This document shows, piece by piece, positions 11,711 to 13,969 of a DNA stretch of 35,212 nucleotides. The notes under the pieces were generated by a model. That model ran no database searches. It saw only the letters and a list, made by a program, of their open reading frames with translations, and was not told where the DNA came from. How positions within the stretch are numbered: the first letter of the stretch is position 1; the number at the start of each line of letters is the position of its first letter. Made by a program: the position numbers and the translations under genes. Source of the stretch: Bacteroidaceae bacterium (lineage in GTDB: Bacteria > Bacteroidota > Bacteroidia > Bacteroidales > Bacteroidaceae); assembly GCA_963637205.1 (NCBI GenBank), contig CAVHNA010000003.1, positions 1 through 35,212 of the forward strand, read 5' to 3'.

Positions 11711-13969
11711 TCATTGTATTGTCTTTAGGAACTCCTCCGCCTTTTGTATGGTGTCTTGCTTGCCTACGTCCAGTATGCGCAGTCCTGGCTGTATGTATCC
11801 GTATATGTTCTCCTTGTCACACACGCTGAGGTAGAAGTCTATGATGGAGAACTTGTCGGGGAAACCGTCGAAATAACGGAACAGCCTTGGATGCATGTAG
11901 TGGATGCCGGCAAAAGCCAGATGGCGGTATTTCGTCACGTCCAGCAGCGGATAGGGGCTCTTCACCTCACCGGTCTGCACGTTGGCCCATCCCACCAGGC
12001 GCATATCGTCGTCGAACAGCAGGTAACGGTTTGTCTGTCTCTCGGACACGAGCAGTGTGGCGGCCTTGCCTGTGGCGTATGCCGTGAAGGCTCTCAGGTC
12101 GGCGTTGCTCAGTATGTCCACGTTGTGTATCAGGAAACCGTCCTGCGCGTCGTGCAGCAGCGGCGCGGCGTGCTTCACGCCACCTCCTGTCTCCAGCAGT
12201 TCGGCGCGTTCGTCGGAGAACCATACGTTCATGTCCTTGGCGTGCTCGGCGCACCAGTCCTCTATCATGTCGGCGAAATGATGTACGTTCACCACCACGT
12301 CTCTGTAGCCCGACTCTTTTAGCTTCTCCAGCAGGTGCTGCAGCAGCGGCTTGCCTGCCACTGGCACGAGTGCCTTGGGCATGCTGTCTGTCAGTGGACG
12401 TAGCCTTGTGCCGAGTCCGGCTGCGAATATCATGCAGCGTGCCGCGGCGAAGGTTTGCGTGATGCCTTGTTCGCGGTGGCATACGTGTACCTCTATGCCG
12501 AACTTCCTGTGTATGTGCTCCGCCAGATGCTGTGCGCTGTACACGCTCCTGTGCTGTCCTCCGGTGCATCCGAAGGAGAACATGAGGTTGGTAAAGCCGC
12601 GCTGTATATATCGCTGTATGTGTGCGTCAGCCAGGTTGTACACGCTCTCCAGGAAGGTGAGTATCTCTCCGTCGTCCTCCAGGAAGCGTATCACCGGCTC
12701 GTCCAGACCTGTCATCTTCTTGTATGGCTCGTAGCGTCCGGGGTTGTGCGTGCTCCTGCAGTCAAAGACGTAACCTCCGCCGTTGCCGCTTTTGTCCTCG
12801 GGTATGCCTTTCTTGTAGGAGAAGCTGAAGATGCGCACTACCAGAGGCCCTTTGCCGTCGTAGCGACTGAACGTGGCGGGACCGTCGGAGGGATGTGCTG
12901 GATAGGGGTTGTACTCGGTGGTCTTGAATCCGTCCGCTCTCTCCACCGGCTTCTCGGGCTCGGGCTGGAACTGGGGCAACGCCACCATGGCGGAGAGTAC
13001 CTCGCGCAGGTAGGGATACGGACAGCCGTCGTCGTTGAGGAGCTCTCTCAGGTTGGCTATCGCTGGCGGTATGCTTTCCAGGAAGTGCTTCTTGCGTTCG
13101 AAGTATCCTCTGAAGCCGTAGGCTCCCAGCACTTGCAGCAGACGGAAGATGACGCATAGCCGCAGCCCTTGGCGGAACTCTTTCTCGTTCACCTCCATGT
13201 AGAACTTCAGGTTTTCCACATAGGTGCTTATGAGTTCAGTGCGTAGTGAGGCGGAGTATTTGGCGGAGGCTTGCCACAGGAAGCTTGCCACGTCGTACTG
13301 CACGGGTCCGCGCCTGCCGCCTTGGAAGTCTATGAAGTAGGGGTTGCCGTCTTGGTCGAGCATCACGTTGCGCGCTTGGAAGTCGCGGTACATGAACGTC
13401 TCTCCGGGTATGTTCACTATGTCCCTGGCCATCAACTTGAAGGCTGCTTCCAGTTTCAACTCGTGGAAGTCTATGCCTGTAGCTTTCAGGAAGCAGTACT
13501 TGAAGTAGTTGAGGTCGAACAGCACGTTCGTCTCGTCCAGGCTCTCCTGGGGGTAGCAGTTGGAGAAGTCGAGTCCTCTCGCTCCCTTCACCTGTATCTT
13601 GGGCAGTATGGCAATGGTGCGGTGCAGCAGGTCTTTCTCTTTCTGCGTATATCTGCCGCCGGAGTCCCTGCCGCCTTTCAGCGCGTCGTAGAGCGACAGG
13701 TCGCCGAGGTCGGTCTGCAGGTATCTGAGGCCGTCCTCCGACTGCGCCACCACCGTCGGCACCGGCAGGTGTCGCATTGCGAAGTGGTCCGCCAGGTATA
13801 TGAAGGCGTGGTTCTCGTCCCTGCTCGTCCCTATCACGCCTATCAGCGTGGTTCCGTCCGACCCTTGCAGACGGTAGTATTTCCGGTTGCTGCCGGCTCC
13901 GGGCAGTGGGTCGCACGAGACGATGTTGAGCTTGGTAGTTTCTCTGTATAGTTGTTTCAGTTGTTCCAT
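11711..13969 (-). CDS. Three-domain fusion: AmgK-like anomeric sugar kinase (APH fold), RapZ C-terminal-type domain, and MurU-like sugar-1-phosphate nucleotidyltransferase
   Basis: One uninterrupted 752-aa frame from the ATG at 13969 ([10 protein letters not shown]...).
- aa 1-335 (nt 12965..13969): [10 protein letters not shown], catalytic [12 protein letters not shown] and FIDFQG, as in AmgK/APH kinases.
- aa ~375-502 (nt 12464..12847): [15 protein letters not shown]...[32 protein letters not shown]...[21 protein letters not shown]. This is co-linear with the E. coli RapZ C-terminal domain (SFGFKYGIP..., DVRFLPNP, MTGLD.PV..FL, GCTGGKHRSV).
- aa ~512-752 (nt 11714..12436): [31 protein letters not shown], the NTP-transferase signature.
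The 52-codon upstream extension in the ORF track overlaps the permease gene and is rejected. Confidence 0.85.
   Translation of the reverse strand: [752 protein letters not shown]

Follow-up and report, generated by a model that had tools for sequence, protein, structure and literature searches.

A RapZ C-terminal-type domain, widespread on AmgK-like kinases, in a protein fused to a MurU-like nucleotidyltransferase: a candidate amino-sugar salvage enzyme

Three modules in one minus-strand gene

The stretch of DNA analysed here (35,212 nucleotides of contig CAVHNA010000003.1, assembly GCA_963637205.1, from a Bacteroidaceae bacterium; hereafter, the window) carries a gene whose product joins an APH-fold kinase, a domain of the RapZ C-terminal type, and a MurU-like nucleotidyltransferase in a single polypeptide. 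A preliminary description of the window, made from its letters alone, had proposed this protein, and its coordinates, its single uninterrupted 752-codon frame, and all of the peptide strings that it quoted agree with the list of open reading frames (ORFs); the strand, which it left unstated, is minus, and the plus-strand translation of 11711-13969 is riddled with stops. The frame is open over 11711..14125 (minus strand), and the ATG at 13969 (MEQLKQLY...) is the start common to all homologues. Upstream of this codon, the frame extends (13970-14125, minus strand) to an ATG at 14125, which would add 52 residues and overlap the permease gene at 13957-15156; because the homologues start at 13969, the extension is probably not translated.

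The modular composition was borne out by Pfam, NCBIfam, a sequence search of the PDB, and Foldseek. Pfam matches comprise APH (aa 21-250, 1.3e-14), PapZ_C, which is the RapZ C-terminal domain (PF22740; aa 377-501, 6e-32, 110.8 bits against a cut-off of 27), and NTP_transferase (aa 513-641, 8e-16), the same three domains that the preliminary description had expected a profile search to return. Among the NCBIfam models, those for MurU rank first at the C-terminus (119.9 bits, 1e-34, cut-off 370; and 115 bits, 5e-33, cut-off 250), the RapZ model matches the middle of the protein through its positions 158-277 only (91.5 bits, 6e-26, cut-off 244), and AmgK is matched at the N-terminus when the whole protein serves as the query (56.6 bits, 3e-16). 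For the kinase domain alone, two AmgK models are the sole meaningful NCBIfam matches (59.4 bits, cut-off 550; and 25.5 bits, cut-off 500), with no significant match to choline or other sugar kinase families. None of the AmgK, MurU, and RapZ models reaches its NCBIfam equivalog cut-off in the 752-aa protein, and AmgK and MurU are used below as closest-family labels only. The PDB sequence search returned MurU (4y7t, 5.6e-20), the RapZ C-terminal domain (CTD; 5o5s, 1.9e-14), and an APH-fold protein (3csv, 3.8e-12). The catalytic Asp/Asn loop and the metal-binding Asp of the APH fold are present (R195, D196, N201, and D214, invariant among 174 family members), and since its catalytic residues are invariant, the kinase is probably active; the transferase carries the GxGTRxxPxT...PK signature in a domain of ~240 aa without a C-terminal extension.

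Structure prediction led to the same modules. The full-length AlphaFold2 (AF2) model has a mean predicted local distance difference test score (pLDDT) of 84, with confident kinase and transferase domains and a disordered linker at aa 342-374; its predicted template modelling score (pTM) is 0.51, such that there is no confident packing between the domains and pocket-to-active-site distances are not assessable from the model. In Foldseek comparisons with the PDB, the MurU structures 4y7u, 4y7v, and 8hhd are on top for the full-length model (template modelling score, TM, 0.83-0.88), and the kinase domain matches 3csv (TM 0.75). When aa 360-510 are modelled alone (pLDDT 84.7, pTM 0.82), the model matches RapZ structures only (TM 0.86 to 5o5s, root-mean-square deviation 1.9-2.4 A, 35% identity); nothing besides RapZ was found below E ~0.7 in this fold search, which returned no phosphatase or mutarotase fold. 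The idea that the middle domain adopts the RapZ C-terminal fold, rather than an unrelated one, is upheld by this fold match. The RapZ P-loop N-domain is absent, and its place is taken by the APH-fold kinase. Coordinates are collected in Table 1. The linker preceding the RapZ-type domain is missing or different in distant homologues, where a shorter, unrelated segment joins that domain to the kinase, and the linker motif RADGxK..NPY..DGPATFSxYDGKG, which is predicted to be disordered, is kept in close relatives only.

Table 1. Positions of the three-domain gene and its parts within the window
Feature	Position	Strand	Basis and remarks
Whole coding sequence, three-domain kinase/RapZ_C/nucleotidyltransferase	11711..13969	-	752 codons + stop; ORF list, homologue starts, domain matches
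APH-fold kinase domain, aa 1-335, AmgK closest family	12965..13969	-	Pfam APH, NCBIfam AmgK, Foldseek 3csv, AF2 pLDDT mostly >90
Kinase catalytic motifs including FIDFQG, aa 193-217	13319..13393	-	R195, D196, Q198, R200, N201, D214, Q216 invariant (n=174 family members)
Variable linker, probably disordered, aa 336-374	12848..12964	-	AF2 pLDDT <50 at aa 342-374; zero invariant columns
RapZ C-terminal-type (PapZ_C) domain, aa 375-502	12464..12847	-	Pfam PF22740 6e-32; Foldseek TM 0.86 to 5o5s
Putative anion/phosphate-binding loop GCTGGQHRS, aa 467-475	12545..12571	-	Equivalent of RapZ C247-S254
Family-specific glycine-rich insertion and second cysteine, aa 394-405	12755..12790	-	G-N-G-G-G inserted relative to E. 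coli RapZ
Fusion junction, aa 503-512	12434..12463	-	Old C-terminal tail of the kinase gene, continued without a stop into what used to be murU; comparison with two-gene loci
MurU-like sugar-1-phosphate nucleotidyltransferase, aa 513-752	11714..12433	-	NCBIfam MurU, PDB 4y7t, Foldseek MurU; starts at retained Met513

Gene fusion, family architecture, and genomic context

Among homologues, the best 120 clusters (identity 59-98%; assemblies of ENA, JGI, NCBI, and Logan) consist without exception of proteins of ~730-790 aa with the same three Pfam domains; several contain hundreds of member sequences, one is 98% identical to the query, and the junction is conserved among the three-domain homologues. 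The possibility that two genes were joined by an error of assembly or sequencing, which might be suspected because close Prevotella relatives (loci L001 and L002) have two separate genes, can therefore be dismissed, as the same protein and junction recur in all 120 clusters from independent samples. In the two-gene loci, the kinase gene ends in ...HREQxIEQxF... (also ...HREQxIxQxF...) and its stop codon, and a separate murU-like gene then starts; the window protein continues through the former kinase C-terminus into murU without a stop, and M513 is invariant among the homologues. Judged from this junction comparison, the three-domain protein arose by fusion, a kinase+RapZ_C gene being read through into the murU-like gene next to it, and Met513 is the retained ancestral murU start. 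In a rough neighbour-joining tree, three-domain proteins occupy several separate positions and two-domain proteins are nested in the clade of the query, a pattern that, within the limits of an approximate tree, suggests repeated fusion and/or fission in the family.

The middle domain alone was searched against 1.84 billion cluster representatives, which yielded 3123 clusters at E <=1e-3 and 233 at E <=1e-30. Architecture classes were assigned with the three query domains to the best 150 cluster representatives (50%-identity clusters), and examples were confirmed by Pfam. The kinase+RapZ_C arrangement accounts for 92 of these, mostly full-length proteins of ~465-500 aa, and for 4 more as split-domain-match variants; the three-domain architecture is found in 7, RapZ_C with the transferase in 1, and RapZ_C only (mostly short fragments) in 46. 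The RapZ-type domain thus belongs natively to the C-terminus of the kinase, and the family has the two-domain kinase+RapZ_C protein (~480 aa) as its core. The preliminary description had read the RapZ-type domain as sitting exactly between two salvage enzymes by design; an insertion of this kind was rejected in favour of read-through fusion of neighbouring genes, the domain being mostly a kinase C-terminus and the uridylyltransferase a separate downstream gene. In some metagenome proteins, the domain has other partners. One protein of 570 aa that looks complete (P0227) combines the RapZ_C of this family with six HEAT repeats, and proteins in which SBP_bac_5, PDZ/S41, GT1, or TPR is joined to RapZ_C (P0126, P0231, P0125, and P0132) have truncated partners and are single representatives; the latter were treated as chimeric metagenome gene calls.

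A genome scan with one genome per species found a relative in at least 595 species. The matches listed include Bacteroidota, many Acidobacteriota, and single genomes of Eremiobacterota, Elusimicrobia, Gemmatimonadota, and Opitutaceae (Verrucomicrobia); the Bacteroidota among them include Prevotella, Alloprevotella rava, Phocaeicola plebeius, Muribaculaceae, Tannerella sp., Chitinophagaceae, and Sphingobacteriales. Gene order was compared in 80 loci sampled from these species. A separate MurU-like gene lies directly downstream on the same strand in ~60 of them, often overlapping the stop codon of the kinase gene, the three-domain fusion occurs in 1, and clustering of all flanking ORFs in the 80 loci revealed no conserved neighbour besides the kinase/transferase pair. 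Three Prevotella relatives (L003, L004, and L031; ~68% identity) have a kinase+RapZ_C gene with no MurU-like gene within the available flank, and in L004 the next gene is a ~1100-aa ORF that, judging from its length and location, is probably mfd; this subclade seems to have lost the transferase part or to have it elsewhere. Database annotations describe the family only as 'phosphotransferase' or 'NTP transferase domain-containing protein', and the literature searched contained no paper linking AmgK with RapZ or describing a RapZ-type domain on a salvage kinase. The architecture is implicitly catalogued, in that precomputed Pfam matches list it, yet it appears to be unstudied; it is a widespread, overlooked feature rather than a strange new system.

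Within the window, the gene sits in a run of minus-strand housekeeping genes. Directly upstream (13957-17311, minus strand) lie genes for a permease-like protein without a Pfam match, an ABC ATPase, and a DUF4836 protein; of the 80 related loci, ~9 also have the ATPase upstream and ~5 the permease, and these all come from near relatives. The mfd gene (8311-11685) lies 25 nt downstream, and an N-acetylmuramoyl-L-alanine amidase (Amidase_3; 7130-8314, minus strand), which is relevant to the cell wall, follows it two genes downstream of the fusion, with no sign that this linkage is conserved. Products encoded elsewhere in the window, among them FtsK, a thioredoxin-reductase-like protein, and methyltransferases, do not affect the interpretation; likewise unrelated to the three-domain gene are a 653-aa ORF without a Pfam match (33090-35051, plus strand) and an 893-aa protein whose sole match is a Golvesin C-terminal domain (165-2846, plus strand).

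Conservation of the RapZ-type domain

The RapZ-type domain was aligned with E. coli RapZ; the reference sequence, which we take to be correct, agrees with the PDB alignment and with the residues named in the literature. By sequence alone, five of the six residues of the RapZ sulfate/malonate pocket are conserved and invariant in the family (RapZ C247, T248, G249, H252, and R253, which correspond to C468, T469, G470, H473, and R474), and the sixth, H190, is replaced by Gly411. The loop C-T-G-G-x-H-R-S is invariant in 174 of 174 sequences from several phyla, as are N409-P410-G411, R405, and G399; G397, G398, D403, R457, and H498 are each absent from just 1 of the 174, C404 is present in 157, and H408 in 87. 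D403 corresponds to D182 of RapZ, a residue of CTD dimerisation, and is thus kept in 173 sequences. Relative to RapZ, the family has a five-residue G-N-G-G-G insertion, and the strand that follows it ends in Asp-Cys-Arg. The modelled Cys-loop is placed between a strand (461-468) and a helix (474-490), which in the model is the classic position of a phosphate cradle. A protein-tyrosine-phosphatase-like fold was considered for this Cys-x5-Arg loop and discarded, since the fold search gave RapZ alone; the likeness is local to the loop at most.

Along the path that RNA takes across RapZ, three basic residues are kept (K170 as K386, R184 as R405, and R196 as K417), and the others are changed (K194P, R211D, R238F, K251Q, and K270I); the K281-R282-K283 tail is absent, and the domain has an isoelectric point (pI) of 7.5, compared with 9.5 for the RapZ-CTD. 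The residues aligned here indicate that the domain keeps the predicted phosphate-binding pocket and has lost the RNA-binding surface of RapZ. It is also the most conserved part of the protein: mean identity among close relatives is 87% for the RapZ-type domain, 69% for the kinase, and 68% for the transferase, the corresponding values across phyla are 57% for the RapZ-type domain and 39% for the kinase, and the share of invariant columns is 52% in the RapZ-type domain, 32% in the kinase, and 26% in the transferase.

The published work on RapZ gives these residues a context. The isolated RapZ CTD binds glucosamine-6-phosphate (GlcN6P) specifically (PMC7073468), and its pocket binds sulfate or malonate (PMC5737377); this pocket is the proposed GlcN6P site. 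In the RapZ-GlmZ structure, basic residues line the RNA path, the C247S variant was unexpectedly inactive, and the GlcN6P density looked 'chemically transformed' (Islam et al., PMC9841335).

Proposed function, alternatives, and known systems

The gene is best explained as an amgK-like anomeric sugar kinase gene that has been fused with the murU-like sugar-1-phosphate uridylyltransferase gene normally found directly downstream, which would give a bifunctional enzyme of amino-sugar salvage. The kinase would phosphorylate N-acetylmuramic acid (MurNAc), and probably N-acetylglucosamine (GlcNAc) too, at C1, and the transferase would convert the sugar-1-phosphate to a UDP-sugar for peptidoglycan synthesis. 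The RapZ-type domain may bind a phosphorylated or carboxylated amino sugar (e.g., GlcN6P, GlcNAc-6-P, or MurNAc-6-P), and such binding could tune the attached kinase to the pool of hexosamines or cell-wall precursors; the metabolite-sensing job of RapZ would then be wired directly to an enzyme, not to a small RNA (sRNA). A module for phosphosugars or anionic amino sugars is the most economical reading of the domain because its pocket is conserved while its RNA surface is not. Of the three roles offered for it in the preliminary description, that of a phosphosugar sensor is reasonable, since the C, T, G, H, and R pocket residues are kept; a dedicated channel for MurNAc-1-P is unlikely because the transferase is encoded as a separate protein in most species, and RNA-binding moonlighting is not supported, given the replaced or absent contact residues and basic tail, together with the lower pI. 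To the explanation as a whole, a salvage fusion enzyme with a phosphosugar-binding regulatory module on its kinase, we assign a probability of about 0.5.

The AmgK/MurU assignment draws on the best-family matches, the order of kinase and then transferase, the published route in Bacteroidetes, and the metagenome-assembled genomes (MAGs) of Tannerella sp. In Pseudomonas, the gene order is amgK-murU, the same as here. The Tannerella sp. MAGs contain the two-domain kinase+RapZ_C form with an adjacent transferase gene. The AmgK/MurU route is stated to exist in Tannerella and other Bacteroidetes (PMC5790795, PMC13046382), and the T. forsythia orthologues of AmgK and MurU make UDP-MurNAc from MurNAc in E. 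coli (PMC10941766). In view of the MAGs, T. forsythia AmgK is probably a member of the kinase+RapZ_C family.

Several observations weigh against this explanation. The best scores lie far below the equivalog cut-offs (59 vs. 550 for AmgK and 120 vs. 370 for MurU), such that the substrates named above are presumed ones for this branch. Proteobacterial AmgK (38 kDa) works without a RapZ-type domain (PMC11957156), and no regulatory interface is visible in the full-length AF2 model. The invariant Gly411 in place of H190 means that the ligand may differ from GlcN6P. Lastly, a domain that is more conserved than the catalytic domains beside it, with invariant Cys, His, Arg, and Asp residues, presents a pattern more like that of an active site than that of an allosteric one.

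The last point leads to the strongest alternative, wherein the RapZ-type domain is a third enzyme that acts on a sugar phosphate or MurNAc through the invariant Cys468/Arg474/His473 loop together with D403, C404, and R405. Candidate activities include a MurNAc-6-P phosphatase replacing MupP, an anomerase feeding an alpha-specific kinase, and a pyrophosphatase. Beyond the extent of conservation, the C-T-G-G-x-H-R-S loop is compatible with a Cys-x5-Arg-Ser phosphate cradle located where a strand turns into a helix, the invariant residues gather at the C-terminal ends of strands in the model, and the family has its own glycine-rich loop and second cysteine; for RapZ, whose C247S variant is inactive, the thiol has been suggested to fulfil a 'specialised catalytic function', and the GlcN6P density looked altered (PMC9841335). 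Nevertheless, no RapZ-CTD is known to catalyse a reaction, the fold search matched neither a phosphatase nor a mutarotase, 17 of the 174 members lack C404 and half lack H408, and T. forsythia is reported to be without AnmK (PMC7670621), which makes a MurNAc-6-P phosphatase less necessary in that species. A third enzyme is a possibility to be taken seriously, to which we give perhaps half the credence of the regulatory module. Slightly more doubtful is its most far-reaching form, in which a MupP-like phosphatase or an anomerase would complete a three-enzyme, Leloir-like salvage machine and reveal an ancestral activity behind the RNA-adaptor RapZ.

It is unlikely that the kinase and transferase act on a substrate other than MurNAc, such as another N-acetylhexosamine or a precursor of capsule or lipopolysaccharide (LPS). 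The low scores would be in keeping with such a substrate, as would the facts that the carriers are mostly not MurNAc auxotrophs and that no MurNAc transporter or catabolic genes were found nearby, in the window or in the 80-locus neighbourhoods; on the other hand, AmgK and MurU are the best matches by sequence and by structure, other kinase families, including choline kinases, gave no significant match, the gene order mirrors that of Pseudomonas amgK-murU, and Tannerella, which depends on the AmgK/MurU route, carries the kinase+RapZ_C form. A little less probable again is a mainly structural RapZ-type domain that dimerises the kinase and/or docks a separate MurU-like protein and has no metabolite role. 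The RapZ-CTD homodimerises, the Asp required for this (D182) is kept as D403, and the tight coupling of murU genes together with the repeated fusions suggests that the proteins act as a complex; a scaffold, however, would not need an absolutely invariant anion-binding loop, and it is mainly the pocket residues that are conserved, not a broad surface.

RNA binding by the domain, which would link salvage to post-transcriptional regulation in the manner of RapZ and GlmZ, is very improbable: the domain is homologous to an RNA-binding one, keeps K386, R405, and K417, and has a pocket that in RapZ touches the RNA backbone (PMC9841335), but the five substitutions along the RNA path, the missing KRK tail, and the pI all argue against it. 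GlmY/GlmZ-type sRNAs, moreover, are to our knowledge enterobacterial, which also counts against such a role.

These observations bear on both RapZ and peptidoglycan recycling. The CTD of RapZ, a well-studied RNA-binding regulator, resembles a piece of a metabolic enzyme. Here the same domain, with its pocket conserved, is attached to an amino-sugar salvage kinase in hundreds of species whose phyla are distant from that of E. coli, which offers a natural, RNA-free system in which to address its ligand and chemistry; it also supports the view that the RNA role of RapZ is derived from a metabolic one. In recycling, the Bacteroidota-type 'AmgK' is a different protein from that of Pseudomonas, and this type probably includes the Tannerella enzyme, a tool for cell-wall labelling and a proposed drug target; it may be regulated, or perform an extra step, in ways that current recycling schemes omit.

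Among known systems, the Leloir enzymes GalM/GalK/GalT provide an analogy only, in that an anomeric kinase is followed by a uridylyltransferase and a third helper acts before the kinase; there is no homology, and the helper role here is hypothetical. Kinase and nucleotide activation are also combined in one polypeptide in Bacteroides fragilis Fkp (L-fucokinase/GDP-fucose pyrophosphorylase) and in LicA/LicC-type fusions, although these have other kinase folds and substrates and a different domain order, and none is known to have a RapZ-type domain. The AmgK/MurU pair (Pseudomonas putida and P. aeruginosa; also Legionella, Caulobacter, and Tannerella) shares with the present protein an APH-fold anomeric kinase and then a minimal sugar-1-phosphate uridylyltransferase, in the same order; relative to the Pseudomonas pair, the similarity is distant, the two activities are in one polypeptide, and the kinase has an extra RapZ-type domain that is absent from the ~38 kDa proteobacterial AmgK (PMC11957156). 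With E. coli RapZ and B. subtilis YvcJ, the protein has in common the CTD fold, the C, T, G, H, and R pocket residues, and the FDxR, NP, GLD, and HR motifs, and it differs from them in having an APH-fold kinase instead of the P-loop N-domain, Gly instead of H190, an extra GNGGG loop, and neither the RNA contacts nor the basic tail. By these sequence features (no P-loop domain, no RNA tail, and a score below the RapZ cut-off), the three-domain protein is not RapZ; what the two appear to share, beyond the fold and these pocket residues, is a tie to the metabolism of amino sugars and cell-envelope precursors.

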